Positions 24,976-49,000 of a stretch of DNA of 64,000 nt are shown one piece after another. This DNA comes from an uncultured Candidatus Micrarchaeota archaeon. GTDB taxonomy: Archaea > Micrarchaeota > Micrarchaeia > Anstonellales > Bilamarchaeaceae. Location: NCBI GenBank assembly GCA_963714085.1, contig OY970229.1:312392-376391 (forward strand), given 5' to 3'. The number at the start of each line of letters is the position of its first letter. Positions within the stretch are counted from its first letter, which is position 1. Below the pieces are notes generated by a model that searched no databases, was not told the DNA's origin, and saw only the letters and a program-made list of their open reading frames with translations. The position numbers were made by a program, and so were the translations under genes.

Positions 24976-24990
24976 ATTTCAATCACCGGC

Positions 24991-25012: not shown

Positions 25013-28000
25013 TCAGGCCGGCGGCGGATTCTGCGGCGGGGTTGCCGGAGGCGACTGCCTCGTGTGCCAGGGTTTGCGCGGCGGCCTGCCGGCGGTGAGG
25101 AACTCGTATGCCAGGAAAGCCAGGACCATGGCCGCGGATATCAGCACCGGCATCCACCAGTAGCTCTCCAGTCCCGGGGACGGAGGCTGGACCGCGCCCT
25201 GCGCCGATGAGTTCGACGGGGGCTGGACCGCCATGTTGAGGCTTAGCGTCGTGGAGACGCCTCCGTGGGCCACGTTCACCGTGTAATAGCCGTGCAGCTG
25301 GAACGGGAGCATGGATTCGCCGTTCGCGTCCGTGGTGACCTGGGAGCTCGTCGCGTTGGGCCCGTATATCTGGAGTATGGCGTTCGCCAGCGGAAGCCCG
25401 CCCACCGTGAGCAGGATCACTCCCTCTCCGCTCGGGCCCTCGTTGGAGCCGGTGATGTTCGGGACGTCGCACGAGTTGGCCACGCAGAACTGGCCCTGGC
25501 GGCAGTCGGTGTCCGCGCAGCATTCGTATTGGTGCCAGGCATGGTTCTCGACGTAACCGCAGGAGCTCGTCACGGACTGGCAGACCCCCAGGGTCGTGTT
25601 GCAGAAGGCCGTGGACGGGCATTGCGCGTCCGCTGTGCAGTTGACCTGGGGCGAGACCGGCGGGACCACAGGCGGGGTGACGTTCGCCGGGGCCCCCGCG
25701 GCGCATGTCGTGTACGTGAAGTTGTTGATTCCGGACCTGTAGCCCTGCTTGGAGCCGTCGATCTCGTAGCTCCCGTTCGCGGCCAGGTGGAACACCGCGG
25801 TGGCGTCGCTTCCGGTCGTGGCCGAGTAAAGCGTCCCCTCGTACGGTTTCGTGAGCAGGAGCTTCACGCTCACGCCCGATGTGGACGAGGTCACGGTCAC
25901 CTCGTCGGACGGGCATGGCGCTATCACGTAGGAGAGCAGCAGCGACGGCTCGGTGTACGGCCCTGACGCGTATCCTCCGCCACCGCCTCCTCCGCCTCCC
26001 CCTCCGGATGGCGGGGGCGGGGGCGGCGCTGGAGCGGATATCGTGAAGACGTAGCCCGCCGACGAGTTCGTATTGCCGTAGATGTCGGTGCAGGTCACTA
26101 TCCAGGTGTGGCGTCCCAGCGCGACGAGCGGGCTCGTCTGGTCGGAGGAGCCGCTCACGAAGGCGTCGTCGGTGTAGTTGGGCGACCCGTCCAGGTAAAG
26201 CGAGCAGTTCATCGTGGGGGACGCGGCATCCGTCGCAGTGAAGTTGAGGTCCACGACCATGGGTGCGCTCGATGTCAGGCCGGCTCCGTTCGCAGGGCTG
26301 TTGAGCGCTATGTTCGGCAGGACCGAGCTGGAGTTGAAGCTCCTGGTCTCGCTCGTGTTCGCGTTGCCCGCGTTGTCCGTGCACGTCACGTACCAGGTGT
26401 GGTTCCCGTCGCTTATGCCGCTGACGCTGAAGACGGCCAGGGTGTTGTTCGCCGCGGGCTCGGTCTGCTTCGGGACGCCGTCGATGAAGAGCGAGCAGCT
26501 CATCGCCGAGGCGAGGTTGTCCGTCGCGGTGAAGTTGAATGCGACCGCCGCTGTGGTGAGCGACTGGTTGTACGGGGATAGGAGGCTCACGGCCGGGGCG
26601 GTCGTGTCCACGGTGAAGCTCCTGGGGATGCTCGTGCCGTTGTTGCCGGCCCCGTCGATGCAGGTGACGTTCCAGGTGTAGGCCCCCTCGCCCGTGACGT
26701 TGTAGCCCAGGGCCGTCAGGGTGTCGTTGGATGCGGTCGTGGAGTTGACTACCGCGCCGTTGATGGTGAGGTTGCATGAGGCGTTCGGGAAGAACGGGTC
26801 CGTCTCGTTGAATATGAAGTTCAATTGCGTCGACGAGCTGTTGAAGCCGTCGGCCGGGGAGACGAGGATTACGGTCGGCCCTGTGGTGGCGACCGTGAAG
26901 CCCCAAGTCGCGCTGGTGTTCGTATTGTTGGCGAAATCCTTGCAGGAGACGCTCCATGTGTGCGGGCCGCCGACCAGGTTCGCGTCGCCCATGTCAGCCG
27001 GTACATTGTTCGTAGCGGTGGTCGAGTTCACCGCGTGGCCGTCCACGGTGAGGTTGCATGATGCGGTCGGGTATACCGGGTCCGTCTCGTTGAAGCTGAA
27101 GTCTATCGAGGTCGCCGGGGTGGCGCTGTTGTTGTACGGGGAGTTGAGGCTCACGGTCGGGGCCGTGGTGACGACCGTGAAGTTCTCCGTTCCGCTCACA
27201 TTGCTGTTGTTGGCGTTGTCCGTGCAGTTGACGTACCAGGTGTGGTTCCCGTCGGCTATGCCGCTGACGTTGAAGACGGTGGCGGTGTTGTTGCTCACCG
27301 AGGAGTTGGTCCGGTTCGGGGCGTCGTCGAGGACGAGCAAGCAGCTCATCTTCTGGGCCAGGTTGTCCTGAGCCGTGAAGTTGAAGTAGACCGACGATGA
27401 ATTGAGCGTCGACAGGTTGTATGGGGAGTTGAGGCTTATGCTCGGCGGGGTGGTGTCCACCGTGAAGTTCCTCGGGAGGCTTGAGCTCGTGTTGCCGCCG
27501 TCATCCGTGCAGGAGACGTTCCAGGTGTAGGCCCCGTCGGCCGGGACGGTGTAGCCCATGGTCGTCACGGTGCTGTTGTTGGCGGTGGTGGAGTTCACCG
27601 ATGCGCCGTTGACCATGAGGCTGCACGACGCGTTCGTATAGAACAGATCCGTCATGTTGAAGGTGAAGTTCAGCGCGGTAGCCGAGGTGTTGAGGCCGCT
27701 GATTGGCGAGAGGGAGACCACGATCGGACCTCCTATGACGACCGTCAAGCTCCAGGTCGCGCTGGTGTTCGTATTGTTCGCGAAGTCGGTGCAGGACACG
27801 CTCCATGTGTGCGGGCCGGCGCTGATGCCCGAGTCTCCCAAGGTCGCCGGGGTGTTGTTCGTCGCGGTCGTGGAGTTGACCGAATGGCCGTCCACGGTGA
27901 GGTTGCATGATGCGGTCGGGTATACCGGGTCCGTCTCGTTGAAGCTGAAGCTCAGCGACGCCGCCGCGGTGACGCTGTTGTTGTACGGGGAGTTGAGGAC

Positions 28001-31000
28001 GACGCTCGGGGCGGTGGTGATTACCGTGAAGTTCCTTATCGCGCTCACATTGCTGTTGTTGGCGTTGTCCGTGCACTGGACATACCAAGTGTAGTTCCCG
28101 TCGGCTATGTTGCTTATCGGGAAGGCGGTCAGGGTGTTGTTGGCGGTCTGGAAATTGGTCTGGGTGAGGGAGCCGTCGATGAAAAGGGAACATGGCATCT
28201 TCTTGGCCAGGTTGTCAGTCGCGGTGAAGCTGAAGGAGACTGATGACGAGTTTAGCGTCGACAGATTGGCGGGCGAGCCGAGGCTGATGCTCGGGGGTGT
28301 CGTGTCATCCGTGAAGTTCCAGGTCTGGCTGTTGGTCGAGAAGAGGCTGTTCTGGCAGGCGACGTGCCAGGTGTCGAATCCCTGGCTCACTGCGGAGCCC
28401 ATGGTCGTTTGGACGCCCGTCGTCGCGTAGGTGGCATTGACCTGAGAGATGCCCAAATAGAGCCGACAGTACACCGTTGGGACGAAGTCGGTCGCGGTGA
28501 AAGTGAAGTTCAACGCCGTCGCCGAGGTGTTGGTGCCGTTGAACGGGGAGTTGAGGGTAACACCCGGGCCGGTGATGAAGATATTGAAGTTCCAGGTCGG
28601 GCTGGCGCCGCTGTTCTTGGCGGCATCGGTGCAGAGGATGCTCCAGTTGTACGCCCCGTAAGTCGGCAAGGTGTAGCTTATGCTCGCCGGGGTGTTGTTC
28701 GCGGCTGTCACGTTATTGCCATAATGCGGGTAGCCGTTGATGTAAAGGAAGCATGACGCGTTCGTGAAGACCGGGTCGGTCTCGTTGAAGCTGAAGGTAA
28801 TCGGATATCCCGAGGTGTTGTATCCGTTTATCGGCGAGTTGAGGACCACGGTCGGGTGCGTCGTCACGACCCTGAAATTCCAGGCCGCGCTCACGTTGCT
28901 GTTGTTGGCCGGGTCGGTGCAGTTGACGTACCAGGAGTGGGTCCCGTCGCCTATGCCGCTCAGCGAGAAGAAGGTCGGCGTGTTGTTGTCCGTGAAGGGG
29001 GCGACCTGGCCCGTCGGCAGGTTGTCCAGGAAGAGGGCGCAGCTCATCGTCGGGGACAGGCTGTCCAGCGCGGTGAAGTTGAATGAGACCGTGGATATGT
29101 TGAACAGCGTGTTGTTGGCCGGCGTCCCGGGGATCACGGTCGGGGCGGCCGTCTCCACCGTGAAGGTCCTCGGTGCGCTCGAGCCGGTGTTGCCTGCGCC
29201 GTTCGTGCAGGAGACGTTCCAGGTGTAGGCCCCCTGGGCCGGGACGGCGTACCCCAGGGTCGTCACGGTGCTGTTGTTGGCGGTGGTGGAGTTCACAGAT
29301 GCGCCGTTGATGGTGAGGTTGCACGAGGCGTTCGTGTAGAAGTGGTCCGTCTCGTTGAACGTGAAATTCAATTGCGTCGACGAGGTGACGAAGCCGTCGG
29401 ACGGGGAGATGGAGGCTACGGTCGGAGCCGCTGAGATGAGGGTGAAGTTCCAGGTCGCGCTCGTGTTGGCGTTGTTGGCCGCATCCCTGCATGAGACGCT
29501 CCAGTTGTGGGCCCCGTCGGCCAGGCCGGAGTAGCCAAGGGTCGTCGGGGTGTTGTTGTTGGCCGTGGTGGAGTTGACCGGTGCGCCGTCCACTATCAGG
29601 CTGCACGGCGCCGCCGGGTAGACCGGGTCGGTCTCGGTGAAGGTGAAATTCATCGCCGTCGCCGTGCTGACGTTGCCGTTGGCCGGCGAGTTGAGCAGGA
29701 CCGTGGGGGCGGTTGTGACTATTGTGAAGCTCCTGGCCGCGCTCGCGTTGCTGTTGTTGGCCGGGTCGGTGCAGTTGACGTACCAGGAGTGGGCCCCGTC
29801 GGCTATGCCGCTGACCAGGAGGACGGTCGGGGTGTTGTTTATCGAGGAGCTGGTCCGGTTCAGGTGGCTGTCCAGGAAGAGCGAGCAGTTCGTCGCCGGG
29901 GCCAGGTTGTCCGTCGCGGTGAAGTTGAAGGAGACCGCGGACGAGTTGATCGTGGCCAAATCATATGGGGAATTGAGGCCCACGGACGGGGCGGTCGTGT
30001 CCACCGTGAGGCTCCTGGTGAGGCTCGTGTTTGTATTGTTGAGGGCATCCGTGCAGGTGACGTTCCAGCTGTAGGCGCCCTGGGCCGGGACGGCGTACCC
30101 CAGGGTCGTCACGGTGCTGTTGTTGGCGGTGGTGGAGTTCACCGATGCGCCGTTGATCGTGAGGTTGCACGAGGCGTTCGTGAAGAAGCGCTCCGTCTCG
30201 TTGAACGTGAAGTTCAATTGCGTCGCCGAGGTGTTGAGGCCGCTGATCGGTGAGACGAGGAGCACGGCCGGGGGAATGGTGACGAGGGTGAAGTTCCATG
30301 TCGCGCTAGTATTGGCGTTGTTCGCGGCATCGGTGCAGGTGACGCTCCAGTTGTGGGCCCCGTCGGAGAGGCCCGAGTCGCTGATCGTCGCCGGGACGTT
30401 GTTCGTAGCGGTGGTCGAGTTGACGGAGTGGCCGTCGATGCTGAGGTTGCATGACGCGTTTGCGTATACCGGGTCGGTCTCGTTGAAGCTGAAGTTGAGC
30501 GTCTTCGCGGAGATGACGCTGCCGTTTGGCGGGGAGTTGAGGACCACTGTGGGGGCCGTGGATACGACGCTGAAGTTCCAGGTCGCGCTCAAGGCGGTGT
30601 TGTTGGCGTTGTCCGTGCAGTTGACGTACCAGGTGTGGGGCCCGTCTGCCATGCCGCTCACGTTGAAGATGGTGGCGGTGTTGTTGCTCACCGAGGAGTT
30701 GGTCCGGTTCAGGTGGCTGTCCAGGAAGAACGAGCAGCTCATCTTCTGGGCCAGGTTGTCGGTCGCGGTGAAGTTGAAGGCGACCGATGCTGAATTGACC
30801 GTAGACATGTTGTACGGGGAATTGAGGCTCACCACCGGCGGGGTCGTGTCCACGGTGAAGCTCCTGGTCACGCTCGTATTGGCATTGCCGGTGCCATCGC
30901 TGCAGCTGACGTTCCAGTAGTGGATGCCGTCTAGCAGGTTGGAGTAGCTCACGTTCGTCACGGTGTCGTTCTGCGCCACCGTGGAGAGGCGGAAGGAGCC

Positions 31001-34000
31001 GTCAATCGTGAGGTTGCATGAGGCCGTCGTGAAGACCGGGTCGGTCTCGTTGAAGCTGAAGCTTATCGTGGTTGCCGAGGTGTTGAAGCCGTTGGGCGGG
31101 GAGACGAGGAACACGCTCGGTGACGTGACGATGGTGGTGAAGGTCCAGATCCCGCTTGCGCCGGTGTTGTTTGCCGCGTCGATGCAGGAGACGCTCCAGG
31201 TGTGGCTGCCGTTGATTATGCCCGAGTCGCTCATCGTCGCCGGGACGTTGTACGTCGCATTGGTCGAGTTGACGACCGAGCCGTCCACGCTGAGGTTGCA
31301 TGAGACCGTCGTGTAGACCGGGTCCGTCTCGGTGAAGGTGAAGTTGATCGCCGTCGCCGAGGTGATGAAGCCGCTGAGCGGCGAGCCGAGGGTCACGCTC
31401 GGCCCGGTGGTGATGACCGTGAAGTTCCAGGCCGCGCTCGTTCCCGTGTTGTTCGCGGGGTCGGTGCACTCCACGTACCAGGAGTGGTTCCCGTCGCTTA
31501 TGCCGCTGATCGAGAGGATGGTCGGGATGCCGTTGGGTGCTGTGGCGTCGCTCACGTTCCGATGGTTGTCGAGGAAGACCGAGCAGTTCATCGCCGGAGC
31601 CAGGTTGTCCGTCGGCGTGAAGTTGAAGGAGACCGATGGCGAATTGACCGTAGACATGTTGTACGGGGAATTGAGGCTTATGCCCGGGGCGGTGGTGTCC
31701 ACCGTGAAGCTCCTGGGCGAGCTTGTGCCGATGTTGCCGACGGCATCCGCGCAGGTGACGTTCCAGGCGTATACCCCCTGGGCCGTGACGTTGTAGCCCA
31801 ATGTCGCCGGGGTGTTGTTGAACGCCGTGGTCGAGTTGACTACCGTGCCGTTGATGGTGAGGTTGCACGATGCGTTCGCGAAGACCGGGTCGGTCTCGCT
31901 GAAGGTGAAGTTCAATTGCGTCGCCGAGGTGTTGAGGCCGCTGATCGGTGAGGCGAGGGTCACCGTCGGGGCCTCCGTGGTGACCGTGAAGCTCCAGGCC
32001 GCGCTCGCGTTGGTATTATTGGCGGCGTCCTTGCACGAGACGCTCCAGTTATAGGTCCCGTCATTCGCCAGGGTGTCGCCCAGCGTCGCCGGGGTGTTGT
32101 TGTATGCAATGACCGTGTTGACGGCCGTGCCGTTCACGATGAGGCTGCATGAGGCGTTCGGATAGACCGGGTCGGTCTCGTTGAAGCTGAAGTTCAACGA
32201 CCTTGTGGATGCGATGCTGTTGTTGGCTGGCGAGTTGAGGGCGACGCTCGGGACCGAGGTGACGACGCTGAAGTTCCAGGTCGCGCTAATGTTCGTATTA
32301 TTGGCGTTGTCCGTGCAGTTGACGTACCAGGTGTGGGGCCCGTCGGCCATGCCGCTCACGTTGAGGATGGTGGCGGTGTTGTTGCTCACCGAGGAGTTGG
32401 TCCGGTTCAGGTGGCTGTCCAGGAAGAGCGAGCAGCTCATCTTCTGGGCCAGGTTGTCAGTCGCGGTGAAGTTGAAGGAGGCCGATGGCGAATTGACCGT
32501 AGACATGTTGTACGGTGAATTGAGGCTTATGCTCGGGGCGGTGGTGTCCACCGTGAAGTTCCTGGTGAGGCTCGTGTTCGTATTGCCGGCGCTGTCGGTG
32601 CAGGTGACGTTCCAGGCGTAGGCCCCCTGGGCCGGGACGGTGTAGCCCATGGTCGTCACGGTGCTGTTGTTGGCGGTGGTGGAGTTCACCGATGCGCCGT
32701 TGATCGTGAGGTTGCATACGGCGCTCGCGTAGACCGGGTCCGTCTCGTTGAAGCTGAAGCTCAACGCGGTCGAGGACGTGTTGAGGCCGTTGATCGGGGA
32801 GACCAGGGTCACCGTCGGAGCCGAGGTGATGATGGTGAAGTTCCATGTCGCGCTAGTATTCGTATTGTTGGCGGCATTGGTGCAGTAGACGCTCCAGTTG
32901 TGGTTTCCGTCGGCCAGGCCGGAGTGTCCTAAGGAAGTCAGGCTGCCGTTCGCCGCCGTGGTGGAGTTGCGGACTGAGCCGTCAACTATCAGGCTGCATG
33001 AGGCGTTCGTGAAGACCGGGTCGGTCTCGTTGAAGGTGAAGTTGACCGCGGTCGCGGTGATGTTCAGGCCGTTGGCCGGGGAGACGAGCGTCACGGTCGG
33101 CGCAGTGGAGACGACGCTGAAGTTCCGGAGCTCGCTTTCGCCCGTATTGTTGACGTTGTCGGTGCACTCTACGTCCCAGTCGTGGCTCCCGTCGTGTATG
33201 TTGGTTACCGTGAGGACGGTCGGGGTGTTGTTCAGCACCGAGGAGTTGAACTTGATCGGGGTATGGTCTATGGAGATTGTGCAGTTCGCAGTCGGGTCAA
33301 GGTTGTCCGTCTCAGTGAAGTTGAACGCTACCGTGGAGGAGTTGAACAGCGACAGGTTGGCCGGCGAGTTGAGGCTCACGAAGGGTTCTGTCGTGTCCAC
33401 GGTGAACCTCCTGGTGGCGCTCGTGGCTGCATTGCCGATCGCATCGGCGCAGGAGATGTTCCAATAATGGACCCCCTCGCCGAGGCTGTAGCTCACGGTC
33501 GTCAGGCTGCTGTTCAATGCGACTGCGGAACTGCGGAAGGAACCGTCGATGGTGAGGTTGCACGAGGCCGTTGCGTAGAACGGATCGGTCTCGTTGAATA
33601 TGAAGTCCAATGCCGTCGAGGAGGTGTTCAGGCCGTTTATCGGGGAGACGAGGACGACGTTCGGTCCGGCGGTCACTATGGTGAAGCTCCTGGTGGCGCT
33701 CGAATTGGTATTGTTGGCTGAATCGGTGCAGGAGACGTTCCAGTGGTAGGTGCCGTCGCTCAGGCCTGAGTAGCCGAGTGTGACGGGCGTGTTGTTCGAC
33801 GCCGTCGTGGAGTTGCGGACCGTGCCGTTGATCATGAGGCTGCATGAGGCGTTCGTGAAGACCGGGTCGGTCTCCGTGAAGCTGAAGTTGATTGACGTCG
33901 CCGTGGTGATGTTGGAGTCGGCCGGGGTGTCGAGGACGACCGTGGGCGCGGTGGTCACGATTGTGAAATTCCAGGCCGGGCTCGTTCCCGTGTGGTTGAA

Positions 34001-37000
34001 GACGTCCGTGCACGCCACGTACCAGGCGTGATTGCCGTCGCTTATGTTGTTTATCGTGAAGGAGGTCGCGGTGTTGTTCTTCGCAGTGGAGTTGTACTGG
34101 TTCGGGGCGTCGTCAAGGAAGATGGAGCAGTTCGTCGTGCTCTGGTCGTCGGTGAACGTGAAGTTGAACTTCACGGTGGACGAGTTCACGAGCGAGAGGT
34201 TGGCCGGGGAGCTCAGGGTCACGTCCGGGACGCTCGTGTCCAGCGTGAAGGTCCTTGTCGCGCTCGTTCCCGTGTTGTTGACCGGGTCGGTGCAGGATAC
34301 GTTCCAACGGTAGACCCCATCGCCGAAGCCGGAGTAGCCTAATTCCGTCAGGGTGCTGTTAGTGGCGGTCGTGGAATTGACGGATACGCCGTTGACTGTG
34401 AGGTTGCACGAGGCGGTCGTGAAAGTGGCGTCCGTCTCGTTGAAGACGAAGTTCACTGCCGACGTCGAGGCGTTGAGGCCGTCCACCGGGGAGACGAGGA
34501 GCACGGTCGGGGGCGTGGTGACCACGGTGAAGCTCCTGGTCGCGCTCGTGTTCGTATTGTTGGCTGGATTGGTGCAGGAGACGTTCCAATAATATGTCCC
34601 CTGGCTCAGGCCGGAGTAACCGATGGTCGTGGGCGTGTTGTTCAATGCTGTCGTCGAGTTGCGGACCGTGCCGTTGATGGTGAGGCTGCACGAGGCGTTC
34701 GTGAAGACGACGTCTGTCGCGTTGAAGCTGAAGTTCAACGACGTCGCGGAGGTATTGAAACCATCTACCGGCGAGTTGAGGACCACGGACGGGGCGCTGG
34801 TGACGACCCGGAAGTTCCAGGCCGCGCTGATGTTCGTATTGTTGGCATTATCAGTGCAGTTGACGTACCAGGTGTGGGGGCCGTCGCTTATGCCGCTGAT
34901 TATGAAGATGAATAGGACGTTGTTCGCGACTGAGTAGTTGGTCTGGTTCAGGGCGTTGTCCAGGTATATCGAGCAGCTCATCGCCGGGGCGAGATTGTCC
35001 GTCGGAGTGAAGCTGAAGTCGACTGATGACGAGCTGGTTACAGATTGGTTGGCCGGCGAGAACAGGTTAACGGCCGGGGGCGTCGTGTCCACCGTGAAGG
35101 TCCTGGGGATGCTTGTGCCGTTGTTGCTGGCTCCGTCGGTGCAGGAGACGCTCCAGCTGTGGACACCCTGGCTCAGGCCGGAGTAGCCCAGCGTGGTCAG
35201 GCTGCCGTTCGTCGCCGTGGTGGAGTTGACCGATGTACCGTTGATGTTGAGGCTGCATGAGACGTTCGTGAAGAACGGGTCGGTCTCGTTGAACGTGAAG
35301 CTCAATGACGTCTGCGAGGTGCTCAGGCCGTCGACCGGGGAGACGAGCACCACGGTCGGACCGGTGCTGGTGATTGTGAAGTTCCTTGTGGCGCTCGTGC
35401 CGGTGTTGGGGGCGGCGTCGGTGCAGGAGACGCTCCAGCTATGCGGTCCGGCGACCAGTCCCGAATCGCCTAATATAGCGGGGGTGTTGTTCGTCGCCGT
35501 GGTGGAGTTGACCGATGTGCCGTCCACGATGAGGCTGCATGATGCGTTCGTGTAGACCGGGTCGGTCTCGGTGAAGTTGAAATTGATCGCAGTCGCGGAG
35601 GTGATGTTGTTGTTGGCCGGGTAGTTGAGGGCCACGGTCGGGCCGGTTGTCACGATCGTGAAGCTGTTCGTCGCGCTCGGGCCGGTGTTACCAGTGAAGT
35701 CGGTGCACGTCACGTACCAGGAGTGGCTCCCGTCGCCTATGCCGCTGATAAGGAATATGGTCGCGGTGTTGTTGGATGTCGAGGGGTTTATCAGGTCCAG
35801 GTCGCCATCGATGAAGAGGGAGCAGCTCATCTTCTGGGCAAGGTTGTCCGTCGCAGTGAAGTTGAAGGAGACCGACGATGAATTGACCGGCGAGCCGTTG
35901 GCTGGCGAGCGGAGGGTCACGTTCGGCGCTATCGTGTCCACCGTGAAGCTCCTGGTCCCGCTTGCGCCCGTGTTATTGGCCGGATCCATGCAGGAGACGT
36001 TCCAGCTGTGGGCCCCCTGGCTCAGGCCGGAGTAGCCTAAGGAAGTCAGGCTGCCGTTCGTCGCCGTGGTCGAGTTGACCACCGAGCCGTCCACGGTGAG
36101 GTTGCACAATGCGGTCGCGAAGACGCCGGTCTCGTTGAAGGCGAAGTTGACCGCCGTGGCCGAGATATTGACGCCGCTGGCCGGGGAGACGAGCACGACT
36201 GTCGGGATCGCGACTGCGATGGTGAAGCTCCTGGTCGCGCTCGTGTTCGTATTGTTGGCCGCATCGGTGCAGGAGACGTTCCAGTAGTGGGTGCCGTCGC
36301 CCAGGTTGGAGTAGCCCAGGGTGGTCAGGCTGCTGTTCGTCGCCGTGGTGGAGTTGACCGGTGCGCCGTCGATGTTGAGGCTGCATGAGGCGTTAGTGAA
36401 GAGCGGGTCCGTCTCGTTGAATGTGAAGTTCAATGACGTCGACGAGGTGTTGAAACCGTTGACAGGCGATTTGAGGAGCACGGTCGGGGCAGTGGTGAAG
36501 ACGCTGAAGTTCCATGTCTGGCTGGTGCCCGTGTTGTTGGCATTGTCAGTGCATTGGACGTACCAGGTGTGGTTGCCGTCGCTTATGCCGCTGATTGTGA
36601 AGATGGCCGGCGTGTTGTTCATCACCGAGGAGTTGGTCTGGTTCAGGACGTTGTCCAGGAAAATCGAGCAGTTGGTCGCCGGAGCCAGGTTGTCCGTCGG
36701 AGTGAAGTTGAAGGTGATTGTGGACGAGTTGAGTATCGATAGGTTGCCTGGCGAGTTGAGGGCCACGGTCGGCTGGGTCGTGTCCACCGTGAAGTTCCTG
36801 TTAAGGCTTGAGCCGCTGTTGCCGATGCCATCGGTGCAGGAGACGTTCCAATAATGGGTCCCCTGGCTGAGTCCGGAGTAGCCCGAGGAAGTCAGGCTGC
36901 TGTTCGTGGCTGTGGTGGAGTTGACCGGTGCGCCGTCCATATTGAGTGTGCATGTGGCGTTCGTGAAGAACGGATCCGTCTCGTTGAACGTGAAGTTCAA

Positions 37001-40000
37001 TGCCGTTTGCGAGGTGTTCAGGCCCATTATCGGGGTCACGAGGATGACGGTCGGGCCCGTGCTGGTGACTGTGAAGTTCCTGGTCTCGCTCGTGGCGGTG
37101 TTGGCCGGATCGCTGCATGAGACGCTCCAGCTGTGGGGTCCTGCGACCAGGTTGGAATCGCCTAGGATAGTCGGGGTGTTGTTCATCGTCGTGGTCGAAT
37201 TCACAGGAGAGCCGTCCACGATCAGGCTGCATGAGGCGTTCGTGAAGACAGGGTCGGTCTCGTTGAAGCTGAAGTTCAATGACGTCTGCGAGGTGACGTT
37301 GTTGTTGGCCGGGTAGTTGAGGACGACGCTGGGGAACGTGGTGACGACGCTGAAGTTATTTGTCGCGCTGGTGCCGGTGTTGCCCGCCGAGTCAATGCAC
37401 GCCACGTACCAGGTGTGGTTCCCGTCGCTCATGCCGCCGATAAGGAATGTGGCCGGGGTGTTGTTGGATGTCAGGGGATTCGTGAGGTACAGCCCGTTGT
37501 CGATGAAGATTGAGCAGCTCGTCTTCGGGGCCAGGTTGTCCTGGGCCGTGAAGTTGAAGGTCACCGTGGACGAGTTGAGTATGGACAGGTTGCCTGGTGA
37601 GTTTAGGGCCACGTTCGGAGGGATCGTGTCCACGGTGAAGCTCCTGGTGACGCTCGTGCCGTTGTTGTTGGCCCCATCAGCGCATGTGACGCTCCAGCTG
37701 TGGGCGCCCTGGCTCAGGCCGGAGTAACTTATCGTCGTCAGGGTGTTGTTAGTGGCAGTGGTGGAGTTGACAGTCGAGTCGTCAACGGTCAGGTTGCATG
37801 AGGCGCTAGTGAATACCGGATCTGTCTCTTCGAAGGTGAAGTTGATCGCGGTTGACGAGATGTTGGTGCCGCTGCCAGGATAGACGAGGACCACTGCAGG
37901 CCCGGTGGTGGCTATGGTGAAGCTCCTGGTCTCGCTTGTATTGGTATTGTTGGCCTCATCGGTGCAGGAGACGTTCCAGTAGTGGATTCCATTGGCCAGG
38001 TTGGAGTAGCCTAAGGAAGTGGGCGTGTTGTTCGTCGCCGTGGTGGAGTTTACCGCTGAGCCGTCTATGTTAAGGCTGCACGAGGCGTTCGTGAAGACAG
38101 GGTCGGTCTCGTTGAAGCTGAAGTCCATCTGCGTCGTAGAGGTGTTGAAGCCGTCGGTCGGGTAGTTGAGGACCACGGTCGGAGCCGTGGTGACTACCGT
38201 GAAGTTCCAGGTCGCGCTCGTTCCCATGTGGCTGAAGACGTCAGTGCACGCCACGTACCAGGTGTGGTTGCCGTCCTCTATGCCGCTGATCGTGAAGTTA
38301 GTCTGGGTATTGTTTGCCACGGAAGAGTTGGTCTGGTTCAATACGTTGTCCAGGAAGATGGAGCAGTTCGTCGTGTTCTGGTCGTCGGTGAACGTGAAGT
38401 TGAACGTGACTGTGGACGAGTTCACGAGCGAGAGGTTGGCCGGGTAGTCGAGGGTCACGTTCGGGACGCTCGTGTCCAGTGTGAAGGTCCTTGTCAAGCT
38501 CGTTCCCGTATTGTTGACCGGGTCGGTGCAGGAGACGTTCCAACGGTAGACCCCATCGCCGAAGCCGGAGTAACCCAGGGTGGTCAGGGTATCGTTGGTG
38601 GCGGTCGTGGAATTGACGGATACGCCGTTGACTGTGAGGTTGCACGATGCCGTCGCGAAGCCGCTCGTCTCGTTGAATGTGAAGTTCAATGAGGAGGTCG
38701 AGGCGTTGAGGCCGTCCACCGGGGAGACAAGGAGCACGGTCGGTCCCGCGGTGACTACGGTGAAGTTCCTTGTCGCGCTTGTTGCTGTGTTGGCCGCGTC
38801 GCTGCATGAGACGCTCCAGCTGTGTGGGCCGCCCACCAGTCCCGAATCGCCTAATATAGTGGGAGTGTTGTTCGTAGCCGTTGTCGAATTCACAGGAGAG
38901 CCGTCCACGATGAGGCTGCATGAGGCGTTCGTGAAGACAGGGTCGGTCTCGTTGAAGCTGAAGTTGATCGAAGTCGAAGACGTGATGTTGTTGTTGGCCG
39001 GGTAGTTGAGAACCACGGTCGGGAACGTGGTGACGACGCTGAAGTTATTTGTCGCGCTGGTGTTGGTGTTGCCCGCCGAGTCGGTGCACGCCACGTACCA
39101 GGTGTGGTTGCCGTCGCTCATGCCGCCGATAAGGAATGTGGCGGGCGTGTTGTTGGATGTCAGGGGATTCGTGAGGTACAGCCCGTTGTCGATGAATAGG
39201 GAGCAGCTCATCTTAGCGGCCAGGTTGTCCGTGGCGGTGAAGTTGAAGGTGACCGTGGATGAGTTGAGTATGGACAGGTTGCCTGGGGAGTTGAGGGCCA
39301 CGGTCGGTGGGATCGTGTCCACGGTGAAGCTCCTGGTGACGCTCGTGCCGTTGTTGTCTGCGGCGTCGGCGCATGTGACGCTCCAGCTGTGGGCGCCCTG
39401 GCTCAGGTCGGAGTAACCTATCGTCGTCAGGGTGTTGTTAGTGGCGGTCGTGGAGTTGACAGTCGAGTCGTCAACGGTCAGGTTGCATGAGGCGGTAGTG
39501 AATACCGGATCTGTCTCTTCGAAGGTGAAGTTGATCGCGGTTGACGAGATGTTGGTGCCGCTGCCAGGATAGACGAGGACCACTGCAGGCCCGGTGGTGG
39601 CTATGGTGAAGCTCCTGGTCTCGCTTGTATTGGTATTGTTGGCCTCATCGGTGCAGGAGACATTCCAGTAGTGTGTCCCGTCACCGAGGTTGGAGTAGCC
39701 TAAGGAAGTGGGCGTGTTGTTCGTCGCCGTGGTGGAGTTTACCGCTGAGCCGTCTATGTTAAGGCTGCATGAGGCGTTCGTGAAGACAGGGTCGGTCTCG
39801 TTGAAGCTGAAGTCCATCTGCGTCGTAGAGGTGTTGAAGCCGTCGGTCGGGTAGTTGAGGACCACGGTCGGAGCCGTGGTGACTACGCTGAAGTTCCAGG
39901 TCGCGCTCGTGTTCGTATTGTTGGCGTTGTCAGTGCAGGCCACGTACCAGGCGTGGTTCCCGTCGGCTATGCCGCTGATGTTGAATAGCGTCGCAGTGTT

Positions 40001-43000
40001 GTTGTTCACCGAGGAGTTGGTCTGGTTCGGGACGTTGTCCAGGAAGATGGAGCAGTTCGTCGCCGGAGCCAGGTTGTCGGTCGCCGTGAAGTTGAAGGTC
40101 ACCGTGGATGAGTTGAGTATGGACAGGTTGCCTGGTGAGTTGAGGGTCACGTTCGGAGGCGTCGTGTCCACCGTGAAGCTCCTGGTGAGGCTTGAGCCCG
40201 TATTGCCGACGATATCGCTGCATGAGACGCTCCAGCTGTGGGCCCCCTGGCTCAGGCCGGAGTAGCCCAATGTGGTCAGGATACCGTTCGTCGCAGTGGT
40301 CGAGTTGGCAACCGAGCCGTCAACAGTCAGGTTGCATGAGGCGCTCGTGAAGACAGGATCGGTCTCGTTGAAGCTGAAGTTGATGGCGGTCGCCGAGGTA
40401 TTGAGGCCGTCCAGCGGGGAGACGAGGATCACGGTCGGCCCTGCGACGCTGACCATGAAGCTCCTGGTCGCGCTTGCATTGGTATTGTTGGCCGCATCGG
40501 TGCAGGAGACGTTCCAGTAGTGAGTTCCGTTGACAATGTTGGAGTAGCCCATGATGGTCGGGGTGCCGTTCATCGCCGTGGTGGAGTTGACCACCGAGCC
40601 GTCGAGGTCAAGGCTGCACGACGCGTTCGTGAAGACCGGGTCGGTCTCGTTGAAGCTGAAGTTCAATGCGGTCGAGGACGTGTTGAAGCTATTGACCGGA
40701 GAGTTGAGGAGCACGGTCGGGGCAGTGGTCACGACGCTGAAGTTCCAGGTCGGGCTCATCCCGGTGTTGTTGGCATTGTCCGTGCACCGGGCGTACCAGG
40801 TGTGGTTCCCGTCGGCTATGCCGCTGATCGTGAAAACGGCCCCGCTGTTGTTCGCCACCGCGGGGTTGGTCTGGTTCGGGACGTTGTCCAGGAAGATGGA
40901 GCAGTTCATCGTCGGAGCCAGGTTGTCCACCGGTGCGAAGCTGAAGGTGACATTGGATGAATTGAATAGCGACTGGTTGGCTGGGGAGTAGAGGGTTACG
41001 CTTGGGGCGGTCATGTCCACCGTGAAGCTCCTGGCGAGGCTCGTGCCCGAGTTGGGGGCGTCATCCGTGCAGGAGACGCTCCAGCTGTGGACCCCCTCGA
41101 TGATGCCGGAGTAGCTCAGGGTCGCCAGGCTGCCGTTCGTCGCCGTGGTAGAGTTGACCGGTATGCCGTCTATGTTGAGGTTGCAGGAGGCGGTCGTGAA
41201 GAACGGGTCCGTCTCGTTGAAGCTGAAGTCCAATGCCGTGGACGAGGTATTAAGGCCCCTGGCCGGGGATATGAGGATCACCGTCGGGCCGGTGCTGGTG
41301 ACCGTGAAGTTCCTGGTCTCGCTCGTGGCGGTGTTGGCCGGGTCGCTGCATGAGACGCTCCAGCTGTGCGGGCCGGCAACCAGTCCAGAGTCGCCCAATA
41401 TAGCAGGGGTGTTGTTAGCCGCAGTGGTTGAGTTGACTACCGAGCCGTCCATGATGAGCCTGCATGACGCGTTCGCGTAGACCGGGTCCGTCTCGTTGAA
41501 GCTGAAGTTGAGCGACGCCGACGGGGTGACGTTGTTGTTGGCAGGGTAGTTGAGGACGACGCTGGGGGAGGTGGTGACGATTGTGAAGTTCGCAATCACG
41601 CTCGCGCCCAGGTTGTTGGCATTGTCAGTGCATTGGACGTACCAGGTGTGGCTCCCGTCGGCTATGCCGCCGATCAGGAATATTGTCGGGGTGTTGTTGG
41701 ATGTCAGGGGATTGTTCAGGTCCAGGACGCCGTCGATGTAGAAGGAGCAGCTCATCTTCGTGGCCAGGTTATCCGTCGCCGTGAAGTTGAAGGAGACCGT
41801 GGAGGAGTTGAGCAGCGAGTTGTACGGGGAATTGAGGGTGACGTTCGGCGCTATCGTGTCCACGGTGAAGCTCCTGGTGACGCTTGCGCCGATGTTATTG
41901 GCGCCGTCGATGCAGGTGACGTTCCAGCTATGGGTCCCCTGGCCCAGGTTGGAGTAGCCCAATGTGGTGAAGGTGTTGTTCGTGGCGGTCGTGGAGTTGC
42001 GGACGCTGCCGTCGATGGTGAGGTTGCATGAGGCCGTCGCGAAGGCGTCCGTCTCGTAGAAGGTGAAGTTGATCGCAGTCGCCGAGATGTTGAGGCCGCT
42101 GCCGGGGTAGACGAGGACGACCGCCGGTGCCGCGGTGGCGATGGTGAAGCTCCTGGTCGCGCTGGTGTTCGTATTGTTGGCCTCATCGGTGCAGGAGACG
42201 TTCCAGTAGTGGGTCCCGTCGCCCAGGTTCGAGTAGCCTAAGGAAGCGGGCGTGTTGTTCGCCGCGGTGGTGGAGTTTACCGCTGAGCCGTCTATGTTCA
42301 GGTTGCACGACGCGTTCGTGAATACCGGGTCGGTCTCGTTGAAGCTGAAGCTCACTGCCGTTGTCGAGCTGTTGAATCCGTTGACCGGGGAGTTGAGGAC
42401 CACTCTAGGGGCGGTGGTGACGAGGCTGAAGTTCCAGGCCGCGCTCGTGCCCGTGTGGCTGAAGACGTCAGTGCACGCCACGTACCAGGTGTGGTTCCCG
42501 TCGCGTATGCTGTTTATCGTGAAGAAGGTCGGGGTGTTGTTCATTGTCGTGGCGTTGGTCTGGTTCCGTACGTTGTCCAGGAACATTGAGCAGTTCGTCG
42601 TGTTCTGGTCGTCGGTGAAGTTGAAGGTGAACGTCACGTTGGAGGAGTTCAGGAGCGAGACGTTTGCCGGGGAGGCGAGGGTCACGTTCGGGACGCTGGT
42701 GTCCATCGTGAAGGTCCTCGCCGCGCTCGTGCCCGTATTGTTGACCTGGTCCGTGCAGGAGATGCTCCAGCTGTAGGTCCCCTCGACAATGCCTGAGTAG
42801 CGGATGGTCGTCGGGGTGTTGTTCGTGGCGGTCGTGGAATTGACGGATACGCCGTTGAGGGTGAGGTTGCACGCGGCCGTCGCGAAGGCGCTGGTCTCGT
42901 TGAAGGTGAAGTTCAATGCCGTGGACGAGGTGTTGAGGCCGTCCACAGGGGAGATTAGGAGCACGGTCGGTCCCGCGGTGACGACCGTGAAGTTCCAGGC

Positions 43001-46000
43001 CGGGCTCGTGCCGCTGTTGCTGGCCGCGTCGGTGCAGGACACGCTCCAGGTGTGGAAGCCGCCGGACAGGTTCGAGCCGCCAAGGGTCGTCGGGGTGTTG
43101 TTGGTCGCCGTTGTGGTGTTGACAGTTATGCCGTCGATGGTGAGGTTGCATGAGGCGTTCGTGTAGACCGGGTCCGTCTCGTTGAATGTGAAGTTCAATG
43201 CCGTCTGCGAGGTGGTGAAGCCGTTTGTCGGCGAGTTGAGGAACACTGTCGGGGCGGTGGAGATTACGCTCAGGTTGAAGGTCTGGCTCGTTCCAGTATT
43301 GTTGGCATGGTCGGTGCACTGGACGTACCAGGTGTAGTTCCCGTCGGCCATGCCGTATACCGTGAGGACGGTCGCCGTGTGGTTGGATGCCAGGGGATTC
43401 GTGAGGTACAGGGTGTCGTCGATGAAGAGGGAGCAGCTCATCTTAGCGGCCAGGTTGTCCGTCGCCGTGAAGTTGAATGGGACCGTGGATGTGCCGGAGA
43501 TGGTCGGGGAGTTGAGGGTCACGTTCGGAGGCGTCGTGTCCACCGTGAAGTTCCTCACTGGGCTGATGCCCGTATTGCTGGCGGCATCGGTGCAGGAGAT
43601 GCTCCAGGTGTAGAATCCGTCTGCGATGGGCGAGTAGCCCATGGAAGTGGGCGTGTTGTTCGTCGCCGTGGTGTAGTTGACCGATATGCCGTTGATCGTG
43701 AGGTTGCATAAGTCGGTCGTGTAGACCGGGTCGGTCTCGTTGAAGCTGAAGTTCAGCGCCGTTCTCGAGGTGATGAGGCCGCTGGCCGGGGAATTGAGGA
43801 CCACGATTGGGGCTTGGGTCACGATCGTGAAATTCCTGGTTTGCGAGGTCCCGGTGTTGTTCCCCCCGTCGATGCAATATACGTACCAGTCGTGCTGGCC
43901 TGCGCTTATGTTCGAGACCGGGAAATCGGTCGGGGTGCCGTTCTGAGTCGTCTCGTTGGTCGCGTTCAGCGAACCGTCTATATATAATGAGCAGTTCAGG
44001 GTGGGGGTCGTGCCGGTCGCGTTGAAGAGGAAGTCGATGGAGGTCGTGTTGGTGAGGTAGGCTTCAGGCGGATACATGAGGTCGACCGTGCCCCGGATCT
44101 CGTTGTCCTGGAGTATGGCGTATGTGCCTGCCGGGGCGAGGTTGGTGAGGCCGAGCGTGTCCGCGACGGTGTCCGGGGTGCCGTTCAGCCTGGTCCAGCT
44201 CGAGCCGTCGAACTGCCAGAGCTCGAAGTCGCTGTCGTTGTATCCGCCGAGCTCGGAGTCGTTCCAGCTCCACACGATGGAGTCTATCACCGGCGAGCCG
44301 CCCGTCGTGCTGATGTCCACGAACTTCTGCGCGAAGGAGGACCGAAGGGATGGTGAGGATCCCGGGTCGCTGGCCCAGGATATGGAGTACGATTGGCCGT
44401 CCTGTATGGTGTGGTTGATGGAGAGGTTTGTGTAGTTCTCCATGTCGCCCAGCGGGTTGTCGAAGACCAGGCCAGAGAGGTTCATGGTCATCGGGTAGCC
44501 GGAGTAGTCCTGCACCAGGACATCGTGTCTGTTGTTGGAGAAGTACATGCCTTCCACGGACGTGTTGTCGGAATTCACTATCATGAGGCCTTCAGCGAGA
44601 TTACCGAATACACTGTTGTTAGTGAAGTTATCGTAGTCCGAGACGCTCTCGACAATGATACCATATCCGCCGTTGCCATAGACACTGTTGCCGCTCGCCG
44701 TGTTATTGCTCGCGTCGGTCTCGAGGTGTAGGCCGTCCCCTGCGTTGCCATAAAGCGTATTGTTGATTATCTGGTTGAAGTGCGAAACGTATCCGAGCTG
44801 GAGGCCGTTCGAGGCGCCGCCATATATCGTGTTGTTGATGAATGTGTTGTTGTCGCAATATCCCCACGCGCGTATGCCGATATCCCGGCTTCCGTTCACC
44901 ACATTGCCCGATATCAGGTTATTGCTGTTGCCCATCTGGATGCCCCAGTAGTTTCCGGAGAGCGTGTTGTCCGTTATATTGTTGTAAGAGGCCGAGTTGC
45001 CCATAGCGATGCCGCTCAGGTTGTCGTCATATGCCGTGTTGTTCGTGACATTGTTGTAGCTCGAGCTGTCCGTGATGAGGATGCCGGCGTCAGAGCTTTC
45101 GTATACCACGTTGTTCGACAGCGTGTTGCCGTTGCTGTCGGAGAGCTCGATGTCCCTGTAGTTCCCGTAGACCGTGCTGCCCGTGATGCTGTTGTTGGAG
45201 TTCAACTGGAGCAGGATGCCGTCCCCGCTGTTGTTGTACGCCGTGCTGTTGACGACCAGGCTGTAGTCGCAGTCCTGCCCTATCGCGAGGCCGGCCTGCG
45301 AATCGCCGTTGTAGAACGTGTCGTTGATGAATTCGCCCCCGTCCGAATCGTACCACTCGTTGACGCCGGCCAGCGCGTCCCCGTATGCCACGTCGTTAGA
45401 TACGAGGGTGTTGTCCGTGTCCGAGAACAGTGCGGCGCCGTATTGGCCCGCGCCGGAGAGCGTGTCGTCCGAGATGGTGTCGTTGAGGCCTGAATCCAGC
45501 TCTATGTCTGCCAGGCTGCTGTCGAGGATCGTGCTGTTCGTTATGGTGGAATACTGGAGCGACAATCCCCTGATCCCGTACGTGTAGTTCGCGATGCCCG
45601 GGCAGTTCTGTATAGTGACATTCGTGAGCGAGGGATCGAGGCCGATGCCGTAGGTGGTGCCGTTCAGGCCGTCGTTGGCTATGCTGTAGCCGCCGCAGTC
45701 GTAGACCACGTTTGACGAGGCGATCTTGACACATGCCATGCCAGGGCTCGGCATCTCAGATGCGTCGTTCGGGGCGCCGAAGTAGTCGGAAGGCTGGACG
45801 TAGGTCCCGGGCTCGGTTATGATTTGGCAGTTGGTGACGTTGAAGGTCACGTTCCTCGCTTCGGTGCAGTTCTCGTTGCCGTTGTTGTCCGTCGCGCAGC
45901 CTTGATAGGCGTAGGTGTGCTCTCCGCTCTGCGACGAACCGGACTGGTTGATGGAGAACTGCCATTCGTTGGTGTCGTACTTGTTCAGGTTGGACTCGTA

Positions 46001-49000
46001 GAGCTGCTGGATCTCCGAGGGCGAGAGGGCGCGGTCGTAGACGCGGACCTCGTCTATGGAGCCGTTGAAGTACCTGAAGGGGGTGTTGGCAGCGCTCAGC
46101 TCATTGCCGATTGTGAGGTTGTCTTGCGGCGTATGGGGCGTGGCCGTGCTTGTTCCCGGTGTCTGGATGCCGTTCACATAGAAATGTGTCGTCCCGCCGT
46201 TCCTTGTCATTACGACGTAGTACCATTGGTCTGCTGAAGGGAACGTATAGCCGGAGTCGATACCCGCGACGTAGCCGTACAGCCCTTCCAGCTGGCTCCC
46301 ATTTATTATTCCGATCCCGTACCCTCCCAGATCATTTCCGTTGTATAAGACGAGCTGGTGGTCTGCTCCTTGATTTAGCTCCGGCTTTATCCAGGCCGAG
46401 AGGGTCCAGTCGTCTATTGCGCTCGTGGCACTGCTCGGGGCGAGGAGATAATCGCTGATCCCGTCGAACTGGTATGCGCCGCCGTACACTCCGTTGGGGA
46501 TCCATGTGGGGCAGTCCGGGTCGCTGCACGTGGCGTTGTTGCCGTACTGGCTCAGGTCGGTCACCTGGCTGCCGTTCTCGCCCAGGGCGGAGACGTTGTC
46601 GAAGTTGTACATCAGCACGAGGCTCTCGTCATACGGTGTGTAGTCCGTGCCGTTCCAGTCGTATGTGAAGACGCCCAATGGGAACGTGGTCTCATTCACG
46701 CTGATGTTTATCGGTATCGTGGAGTTGGACGTGACCGTGCCGGTGTCAGGGGTCGGCGGGCTGAATGCGATGAGCGGCGGCGGTGCCACGATCCCGTTCT
46801 GGAGTATTCCGTAGTCGCCTCCCGGGCTCAGGCCGCTCATGCCGAGCGTCTCCGCGACTGTGTCCGGGGTGTCGTTCACCATGGTCCAGCCCGATTCGTT
46901 GAACTCCCAGAGGCTGAACTTGGTCGGGTCGTATCCTGCGGAGCCGTTCCAGCTCCATACGATGGAGTCGATGGACGGCGAACCTTCCAGTGTGGAGATG
47001 TTCACGAACTTCCCCGCGAATGGATGGTAGCCTGCAGGGTGGGATCCTGGGTCGCTGGTCCAGTTCACGGAGTATCCATCTCCATACTCGACGCTGTCGT
47101 TTATGGATAACGTGGTGTAGTCCGCCATGTTGCCCAGCGGGTTGTCGAAGACCATGCCTGACAGGTTTATCGTGTTGGGGAAACCGATATTGTCGCGCAC
47201 CGTCAGGTCGGGGTTGTTGTCGGAGAAGTACATGCCCTGCACCGAGGTGTTGTCGGAGCCATCTATCCACAAGCCGGACATGTTGTTGCCGAACACGCTG
47301 TTGCCGACCAGGGTATTGTCGCCGCCCCCGCCGACGTGTATCCCGCTTTGGTTGTTACCGGACGCGTCGTCGTAGAGCAGGGTGTTGTTGTACCCGCCGA
47401 TGTAGAAGCCTTCGTATGTGTTGCCGGACGCGTTGTCGTAGAGCAGGGTGTTGTTGTCCCCGCCGATGTCGAAGCCGCTCGCATAGTTGTAATTGCCGGA
47501 GGCTGTGCTGCCGGTGATGTTGTTATCCGATCCGTACATCAGGAAGCCGTAGTCGCGGTTATCGCTCGCGTTGATCCCGGAGAACTGCGTTTGCGATATA
47601 CCGTATATGTAGAGGCCGACGTCACGGTCGTTGGTGGCGGTATCGTTGACGAAGCTGGAGTTAGAGACAGAATACAGGACGAAGGTGGCATCGCCATCAC
47701 CAGTGCCGGAATCGTTGGTGGAATTGAATGCGTTTACGTCACCTAGGTCAAAGCTTATCCAGTCGTTGTTCGCGACGTCGTTTAGGGACGTGACATTGTC
47801 GCTTGATTCTATCTCGAATCCTATGGAGTCGTTGTTTGCGGCATCGTTGAGGTATGTGGCGTTGTCGCTTTGTTCCGTATCGAAGCCCAGGTGATTGTAG
47901 GATGAGGAGACATTGGCGACTGTGGTGCCGTTGCTGTAGTACAGTATGAGTCCGTCGTTGTTGAGGGTGTCGGAGCCGTTGACCACGCTGTTCGTGATAC
48001 TAGAGCCGGTCGCATTGCAAAGTTCAATCTCGGCGGTGTCCTGCCCGTCCAATGAAACGGGTTCATCGGAGTAATATATCTGGCGGCCGTCCGAGCTGGT
48101 CGTATCCGTGATGTTGTTCTGGCAGTCGTCCGGGGAATTCGGGTACACGTAGAGGTCGTACTGCCCGTTTTCCATGGCGGTGTTGTTGTACAAGGTATTC
48201 TGGCTGGACCCGGTGAGCGAGATGCCATAGTAGCTGTTGTTGTCGAAGCTATTGTTGGACATGGTATTGTTGTACGACGACTCAAACTGGGCGCCGTCGT
48301 TACGGCTGTTTTCGATGTCATTGCCGGAGATGTCGCTGTCGCTCAATGAACCATAGATGCCGTATCCGTTGCCGACCAGGGTATTGCCGGAGATTTCGTC
48401 GCCGCTCGATGTGGGGAGATAGATGCCCTCGTCGGAGGCGTTGTAGATGCCATTGCCGTATAGGCCTTCGTTGTTGGAATTCTCGATATCGAAACCCGCC
48501 CAGCTGCTGCCGTATATGGTGTTGCCGGTGAAGTTGTTGTAATCCGAGCCGCTTAGGACCACGAAGCCTGCGTATCCCTCGTCAGAGAGATTGTTGTCAG
48601 ATAGCAGGTTATCGCTGCTTGCGCTGAGCTGGATGCCAGAATAGTCCCGGGTGAGGGTATCGTTCGTGAGGTTGTTGTCAGAGCCGCCGTTGAGCATGAT
48701 GCCGGCCGAGCCGGACGGGCCGCTGCCCGACACCGTGCTGTTGATTATGGCCGAATCGGTGTCGGACTCGGCCCAGAGCCCGTAAGTGTAGCCGGAGATT
48801 TGGCAGTTCTGGACCGTCACGTTGTCTAGCGACGAGTCGATGGCGATGCCGTAGGTCGTGCCGACGATGCCCACGTTCGTGATATTGTGGCCCTGGCAGT
48901 CGAAGACCACGTTTGGCGAGGATATCTTGATGCACGTGTTCCCCCCGTCCGGCATCTCCGAGGCGTCATATGGCGCGCCGACATAGTCGTTCGGCATGTT

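Follow-up and report, generated by a model that had tools for sequence, protein, structure and literature searches.

How does an array of dozens of immunoglobulin (Ig)-like domains come to be built, and what keeps its domains in order? The question is raised by a 64,000-nucleotide stretch of contig OY970229.1 (assembly GCA_963714085.1, positions 312,392 to 376,391) from an uncultured Candidatus Micrarchaeota archaeon, which we analyzed as a whole and refer to as the window. It is filled from end to end by a tandem pair of giant genes, both on the minus strand. Gene 1 (25013..64000, minus strand), delimited from the open reading frame list and its translation, is a single 39-kb frame with its stop codon at 25013-25015 that is still open through 63893-64000; the product exceeds 12,995 amino acids, and its 5' end and signal peptide lie beyond the window edge. 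An initial annotation, made from the sequence alone, had described positions 26039-44095 (amino acids 6600-12622 of the gene 1 frame) as some 64 Ig-like units with a titin-like hierarchy, in which three subtypes recur in fixed order, and had suggested clustering all units against position and modeling a triplet as a possible rigid super-unit. We find that 60 of these units follow a strict a-b-c order, and that the same grammar is kept, with irregularities, in the neighboring paralogue, gene 2.

Subtype order and block duplication in the array

The array occupies 26027..44095 on the minus strand and, judged by its cysteine map, unit segmentation, Pfam matches and AlphaFold2 models, comprises 64 units of 91-97 amino acids (u01-u64), in agreement with the number first estimated. 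Read from the N-terminus, the full order is a0, a b/c-like unit, 20 copies of a-b-c without exception, a and a'. An N-terminal cap (43538..44095) is formed by u01, the divergent a-like unit a0, and u02, a b/c hybrid with an FTVD end. The core (26600..43537) consists of u03-u62, arranged as unbroken triplets of ~283 amino acids or 0.85 kb each, and a C-terminal cap (26027..26599) contains u63, which is of type a, and u64, the divergent a'. The three-domain super-repeat that had been proposed is thus borne out by 20 consecutive triplets.

Position-blind average-linkage clustering of all 64 units returned two clusters that succeed one another along the array as B A B A A B A A B ..., which is a strict period of 3 and not a random order. 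Mean protein identity between units was 0.57-0.62 at lags of 3, 6, 9 ... units and 0.42 at other lags, and nucleotide identity was 0.70-0.73 at lags that are multiples of 3 and 0.58-0.59 otherwise. The nucleotide values come from comparisons of codon-aligned units, used in place of ungapped nucleotide autocorrelation because the latter blurs with distance owing to 3-nt insertions and deletions. Tandem Repeats Finder, with a period limit of 500 bp, detects adjacent b-c pairs only and is unsuited to the super-repeat. For every unit from u03 to u63 the nearest neighbor in sequence was in the same phase, and the top 40 unit pairs at the nucleotide level were all separated by multiples of 3 units.

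The subtypes are not separated to the same degree. Protein identity was 0.59 among b units, 0.60 among c units and 0.53 between b and c, and it fell to 0.39 between a and b and 0.34 between a and c. The split between a and b/c is deep; that between b and c is shallow but rule-bound, with c always preceding a. Inside the b/c cluster, the two types alternate strictly under complete linkage, and Ward clustering misplaces u56 only. The notion of three subtypes therefore stands as far as their rule-bound order goes, but it gives way to one deep and one shallow division where their relationships are concerned. Per-type consensus sequences reproduce the motifs first reported, including the FTVDT that closes type c. 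The inter-domain linkers, 4-5 residues long, are also specific to subtype (VVTTAP from a to b, T.GP from b to c, VDTT.P from c to a).

Above the triplet, we found only scattered block duplications of 3, 6, 9, 12, 15 and 21 units. A ~1.69-kb hexamer had been put forward as a further general level, but identity at lag 6 (0.624) hardly departs from that at lag 3 (0.596), lag 9 (0.616) and lag 15 (0.624), and shifts of 9, 12, 15 and 21 units are as frequent as shifts of 6 among the best pairs. The 6-unit signal has two sources, u16-u19 against u22-u25, which represent one recent duplication, and u42 against u48. The former is the latest block duplication in the array, with its first copy at 38747..39871 and its second at 37055..38182 (minus strand); unit pairs across this 6-unit shift are 84-96.5 % identical at the nucleotide level, the whole block is 92 % identical, and the ratio of nonsynonymous to synonymous divergence (dN/dS) is 0.12-0.22.

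Same-type units share ~57-60 % protein and ~72 % nucleotide identity. Their median synonymous divergence (dS) is ~0.55-0.62, and because same-type units have diverged this strongly we regard the array as old. Median dN/dS was 0.42-0.55 for same-type units; in recent copies, dN/dS was 0.12-0.49. These values indicate purifying selection, and in spite of its age the array still has all 60 core units in order.

Adjacent units are less alike than they would be in a random arrangement. Adjacent-unit identity was 0.419, compared with 0.472 ± 0.014 in 10,000 random orders, none of which was as low, and the maximum adjacent identity was 0.63 where 0.78 was expected (p = 0.0006). By junction, adjacent identity was 0.38 from a to b, 0.34 from c to a and 0.54 from b to c.

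Composition, predicted fold and relatives of the units

All 128 cysteines of the array fall exactly two to a unit. The two lie 39 residues apart in type a units and 38 apart in the other two types (extremes 37-40), so the series 39, 38, 38 ... is a period-3 signal by itself. The cysteine pair, placed about 38 residues apart in the initial annotation, occupies strands 4 and 7 of the modeled sandwich, and a structural intradomain disulfide in each unit is likely because the pair is invariant in gene 1 (128/128), in gene 2 (65/65) and in the relatives inspected.

The composition of the array likewise agrees with what had been noted for a single unit: Asn, Ser and Thr together make up 42.1 % of residues, Lys 0.3 %, Arg 1.1 % and Glu 1.1 %, and four units (u03, u09, u18 and u24) each contain one Lys, no Arg and no Glu. 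Shuffled versions of the array contain 214 ± 12 N-X-S/T sequons and the array itself 492, which amounts to 8.2 per 100 amino acids or ~8 per domain; this excess would fit a heavily N-glycosylated archaeal surface protein. A halophile origin of the sequence was considered and rejected, as Glu is very low and Asp moderate.

Against the Pfam family Big_13 (PF19077), whose gathering threshold is 27 bits, an a-b-c triplet reached 49.7 bits (E 5.7e-13), spread over three stretches. The best of these extends over positions 24-100 of the 102 in the profile, and the match is weak per domain, suggesting that the units form a divergent Big_13 subfamily. NCBIfam gave no match for the Ig units or for the gene 1 C-terminus. 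With an alignment of the 20 triplets as input, AlphaFold2 predicted a-b-c as three all-beta sandwiches of 9 strands per unit, with a predicted local distance difference test score (pLDDT) of 95.6 and a predicted template modeling score (pTM) of 0.78. The permuted triplet c-a-b was modeled equally well (pLDDT 95.4, pTM 0.77), and linker pLDDT was 95-97 at all three junction types. On these confidence scores, which are a coarse guide, no junction appears to stand out as a hinge or block boundary, and the equal confidence of the two models does not support the triplet as the special rigid unit that the initial annotation had envisaged.

A structural search with the a-b-c model gave 260 matches in the PDB at E <= 1e-3, the top ones all being tandem Ig/Fn3-type proteins. 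The best were domains BIg50-52 of SiiE from Salmonella enterica (PDB 2yn3, 2yn5), with template modeling scores of 0.45-0.51 for the four best chains, E values of ~1e-9 and 18-20 % identity. Besides this structural match, the gene 1 product would share with SiiE a long rod of ~50-60 Ig-like domains, and both proteins have Asp-rich conserved positions. They differ in that SiiE is bacterial, type I secreted and Ca2+-stiffened, whereas the gene 1 product is archaeal, very sequon-rich, anchored by a predicted C-terminal transmembrane helix and provided with a conserved Cys pair. SiiE is an adhesion extender in which 53 BIg domains form a 175-nm rod, and in a review of it no subtype order was found (PMC6272769).

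We next turn to the paralogue. Gene 2 (1..24751, minus strand), which lies directly downstream of gene 1, starts at an ATG at 24751 with a signal peptide, and its frame runs off the window start. It encodes ~8,800 amino acids with many LamG modules, beta-helices and a 35-unit Ig-like array, and its C-terminal anchor is nearly identical to that of gene 1. Of the 35 array units, 33 lie in the window (1..9191, minus strand). Hidden Markov models (HMMs) of a, b and c were built from gene 1 units, with gene 2 held out of training, and by these models the gene 2 array, completed from the public protein P0013, reads a0 c abc abc abc ac abc abc abc acc abc ac abc a a'. Type c precedes a in 12/12 cases, b stands between a and c in 8/9, and 20/21 b/c positions obey the grammar of gene 1. 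In the cross-gene comparison of units, a and b/c separated cleanly, 38 of 45 best matches were of the same type, and confusions among internal units were between b and c only; global clustering of units across genes did not resolve b from c.

The closest metagenomic relatives, from one sample and 57-66 % identical, show the same order with clear HMM score margins, L035 reading b c a b c a and L038 reading b c a. A third, L036 (Ga0326728_10032706, array at amino acids 1585-2060 of the frame), reads a0 b c a a' and continues into the same C-terminal region. Orthologues of u01 stand first in the arrays of gene 2 (58 %) and L036 (55 %), and the last unit of L036 is the orthologue of u64 (62 %); the cap units are therefore fixed, and the interior expands. 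Among related proteins, array length spans 5 to 64 units.

A word-indexed protein search recovered only 12 fragments, which suggested a rare family. An exhaustive profile search identified 19,139 proteins at E <= 1e-3, with 1,703 passing E <= 1e-30, and lengths of 2,000-7,700 amino acids were frequent among the matches; in view of this large family, the idea of rarity was dropped. Matches in genomes of species representatives were mostly to metagenome-assembled genomes of DPANN archaea, with Micrarchaeota the closest (45-62 %); others were in Woese-, Nano- and Altiarchaeota and in a few metagenome-assembled genomes labeled Methanosarcinales. In one distant relative, L002 (GCA_021731385.1, JAKFXM010000203.1, 3224-4125), a protein with a single a-like unit adjoins an IS1595-family transposase.

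Because a, b and c labels are unreliable in distant relatives, where HMM margins are only a few bits, we surveyed periods with label-free lag profiles in the 99 arrays of at least 9 units found among the top 150 representatives. A period of 2 was seen in 58 arrays, P0122 and P0021 among them. Two arrays had period 3, two period 5, one period 4 and one period 6, and 35 had none. Lag profiles of many distant relatives likewise showed a two-domain super-repeat, as in L063 (identity 0.28 at lag 1 and 0.69 at lag 2), L064, L065 and L004. In this large, uncharacterized family, super-repeats are thus the norm, with a-b-c a rare variant. This pattern matches the general finding that domain repeats expand by multi-domain units, which are common, with two domains as the commonest (PMC1553488). 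One protein of a JGI metagenome, P0014 (2,822 amino acids), has a C-terminal Cys-rich region homologous to that of gene 1 and a period of 3, overlaid by a stronger 6-unit period (0.77 at lag 6). As its period is built from three a-like subtypes, it arose independently of a-b-c.

Protein architecture, growth of the array and alternatives

The remainder of gene 1 (all coordinates on the minus strand) gives the array a membrane-proximal and a distal side. On the C-terminal side, the translation shows a linker of the form Pro6-Ser-Gly11 (25973..26026), followed by a region (25163..25972) with a weak CarboxypepD_reg-like domain (Pfam E 6e-6, below cut-off) and a Cys-rich segment; by sequence comparison this region is conserved in gene 2 and P0014. 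It is followed by a predicted transmembrane helix, YWWMPVLISAAMVLAFLAYEFL (25097..25162), which was read by eye from the sequence, and by a short Arg/Lys/Pro-rich tail (25016..25096). A PGF-CTERM-type archaeal sorting signal was considered for this end and rejected, as the C-terminus is a plain transmembrane helix with a longer Pro/Arg-rich tail. The N-terminal, distal half (44096..64000), mapped by Pfam matches (E 1e-27 to 1e-72) and motifs, is composed of super-modules in which a right-handed beta-helix (NosD/Beta_helix) is combined with a sandwich bearing the motif SIDSIVWSW, with the small 'AFSPPTP' domain and with between one and three copies of Laminin_G_3. This domain order after and before the array points to a topology that would run from a membrane anchor through a 64-domain stalk to distal binding-type modules. 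Super-modules of 1,300-1,600 amino acids are repeated in both genes (44096-64000 in gene 1; 9192-24751 in gene 2), and the hierarchy of the protein extends beyond the Ig array into these N-terminal halves.

From these observations, we consider it likely that the array is the glycosylated, disulfide-stabilized stalk of an adhesin-like DPANN surface protein and that it grew by in-register block duplication. Scaled from SiiE, such a stalk would be ~0.2 μm long, and it would hold the beta-helix and LamG modules, which are of a carbohydrate-binding type, off the cell, probably in contact with a host cell or surface. In Periscope proteins and MpIBP, tandem Ig-like or similar domains set how far the tip projects from the cell (PMC8201768, PMC4083281). 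Those arrays consist of near-identical DNA repeats and vary rapidly in length; adjacent units of gene 1 share ~58 % and same-type units ~72 % DNA identity, and therefore the gene 1 array is, unlike them, old and stable.

The order could have come about as follows. The depth of the split between a and b/c and the relatives with period 2 suggest that two types (a, x) once alternated, and a-b-c may have arisen from this arrangement through duplication of x. The array would then have grown by unequal in-register recombination, in blocks of 3, 6, 9, 15 ... units, with register kept because units of the same type alone would be similar enough to recombine. Selection may also have favored unlike neighbors as less prone to misfold together, and purifying selection would preserve each subtype with its own linker. 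Neighboring homologous domains are known to tend to diverge, with less misfolding as the result (PMC4660218), and the low neighbor identity in gene 1 would fit this idea, as put forward also for Bap (PMC4647330).

Several observations weigh against this account. Neighbors at the b-to-c junction are 54 % identical (up to 63 %), and one b-c pair in L035 is 84 % identical. Avoidance of similar neighbors is therefore weak at this junction and cannot alone explain the order. In addition, some relatives (L068, L043) have homogeneous arrays, with ~0.60 identity at all lags.

An alternative that we regard as rather unlikely is that the triplet is a functional structural period, with an axial repeat of ~10-13 nm that would, for example, turn type a the same way each time. 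It would then bind a periodic partner, which could be the S-layer lattice of a host, an adjacent rod within a bundle or sheath, or a glycan of repeating structure. Perfect order over 60 units speaks for this reading, and so does the fact that the paralogue and other genomes keep to the grammar although units of one type have diverged by 35-45 %. The preservation of type-specific residues and linkers, the one extra residue that type a always has between its cysteines, and pTM values of 0.77-0.78, which suggest a fairly fixed inter-domain geometry, point the same way. However, a-b-c and c-a-b were modeled with equal confidence and no special junction, gene 2 tolerates a-c doublets and an a-c-c, and L036 makes do with five units. 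Relatives have mostly period 2, others 5, 6 or none, so the family as such requires no particular period, and no partner is known. A more specific form, to which we give little credence, is a rod of fixed twist with every third domain (type a) on one face, presenting a multivalent surface at ~10-13 nm that would register with a lattice. If it were true, the array would be a prokaryotic counterpart of the molecular-ruler principle of titin, and the period-2 arrays of relatives would be tuned to other partners.

The 7- and 11-domain super-repeats of titin mix Ig and Fn3 domains and match the thick-filament period. Like titin and nebulin, the gene 1 array has domains in a fixed multi-domain order produced by block duplication, with the same autocorrelation signature (PMC1553488). 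It differs from them in having one fold in three sequence subtypes (34-54 % identical), in belonging to a prokaryote without exons and in lacking a known periodic partner. Given this, the a-c doublets of gene 2, the five units of L036 and the other periods of relatives, the titin-like hierarchy of the initial annotation reduces to a formal likeness.

It also seems improbable that the order is purely a product of neutral history, in which one a-b-c block was amplified recently and its order has not yet decayed, with no selection on order or neighbors. Block duplication alone has been argued to lower the similarity of neighbors (PMC1553488), all close unit pairs are in register, and b and c differ little, as this explanation would have it. 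It is countered by the age of the array, in which not one of 60 core units is misplaced despite the divergence of same-type units in protein, nucleotide and synonymous sequence; by the grammar and subtype linkers that the paralogue has kept, as have other genomes at 57-66 % identity; and by dN/dS values below 1. That mis-assembly of a shorter repeat made the long regular array is highly improbable: repeats are hard to assemble, and the -1 frameshift beside a short C run in gene 2 could be a sequencing error, but same-type pairs are mostly 70-85 % identical at the nucleotide level (best 96.5 %), so that each unit is unique and placeable, the single 39-kb frame stays open, the identical gene 2 sequence is present in public databases on a 1.57-Mb contig, and the same subtypes occur on independent contigs from another metagenome.

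A stalk of an adhesin-like surface protein, grown in register, would place gene 1 among known kinds of systems, namely giant adhesin-like Ig extenders and repeats of multi-domain blocks, and reveals no new kind of molecular system. It would work like the RTX/type I secreted giant adhesins of the SiiE, LapA and MpIBP class. We do not count it as a member because its C-terminus is a transmembrane helix with a basic tail, Pfam reports no RTX in the gene 1 product and its relatives are archaeal. Acinetobacter Bap (modules A-E) is similar in being a large surface protein whose repeat region contains several module types, and the repeat regions of staphylococcal SasG (G5-E) and Embp (FIVAR-GA) are also of mixed module types; all three differ from the gene 1 array in domain family and in organism. 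For the mixed modules of Bap, protection from slippage and misfolding has been invoked (PMC4647330).

Of the same lineage group are the giant LamG/Ig-like proteins of DPANN archaea, which share with the gene 1 product their giant size, long tandem Ig-like arrays followed by a transmembrane segment, and LamG domains, and for which host contact has been proposed as a role (PMC10266531, PMC5498576, PMC11573180); in the searched passages of the three sources, no subtype order was found. Among archaeal proteins above 5,000 amino acids, a group of still obscure function, Laminin_G_3 is the commonest domain (PMC11573180). The Micrarchaeota strain Mia14 has an expanded set of LamG proteins, for which a role in host interaction was proposed (PMC5498576), and LamG-rich surface proteins have been put forward as host-interaction factors in Micrarchaeota and other DPANN archaea (PMC5498576, PMC10266531). 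The nanohaloarchaeal SVXNc_0300, with 9,409 amino acids and ~75 Ig-like domains, was described as the largest in any cultivated archaeon (PMC10266531). The nanohaloarchaeal proteins have a cytoplasmic VirB4/TraG-like ATPase and WD40 propellers, which were not reported for the gene 1 product; the latter, by contrast, has beta-helix/LamG super-modules, a short cytoplasmic tail and more than 12,995 amino acids against 9,409.

The gene 1 product is thus among the largest archaeal proteins on record, and it is encoded beside a paralogue of ~8,800 amino acids. For an archaeon with a small genome this is a heavy investment and suggests a central function at the cell surface, with host contact a plausible one. 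The family also offers a data set for deciding whether neighbor dissimilarity is selected or a by-product of block duplication, a question left open by earlier work (PMC1553488, PMC4660218), and the subtype grammar should help in checking assemblies of such genes and in designing stable multi-domain constructs.

Gene 2, the intergenic gap and the window

Compared with its paralogue in gene 1 (…SSQGIT Q GSDYLVAG…), gene 2 has a -1 frameshift near 18412-18414 (within 18398-18421, minus strand), beside the short C run ACC[C]AGGG. It may reflect a sequencing error; otherwise the gene is truly split or a pseudogene. The public protein P0013 (6,703 amino acids) begins just past the frameshift and is identical to gene 2 beyond that point. 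It is encoded on a contig of 1,571,539 bp, of which the two giant genes cover at least 4 %.

ARAGORN predicted a single feature in the 262 bp that separate the giant genes, a tRNA-Arg(GCG) gene (24901..24976, plus strand), which is also the only marker gene in the window. tRNA genes are common integration points. LamG loci of a Micrarchaeota strain have been placed on a genomic island (PMC5498576). A TATA-like element, TTTTTAAAT, lies ~25 nt upstream of the gene 2 ATG (within 24752-24800, minus strand), with no leader visible, and its placement would be in keeping with an archaeal promoter whose mRNA has a short leader or none.

Strong strand asymmetry is seen throughout the window, with a GC skew of +0.05 to +0.24 and a negative AT skew on the plus strand. 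The skew peaks over the two Ig arrays and mirrors the biased codon use and amino-acid content (Asn, Ser, Thr) of the genes on the minus strand, and many long spurious open reading frames are present in the other frames of the window.

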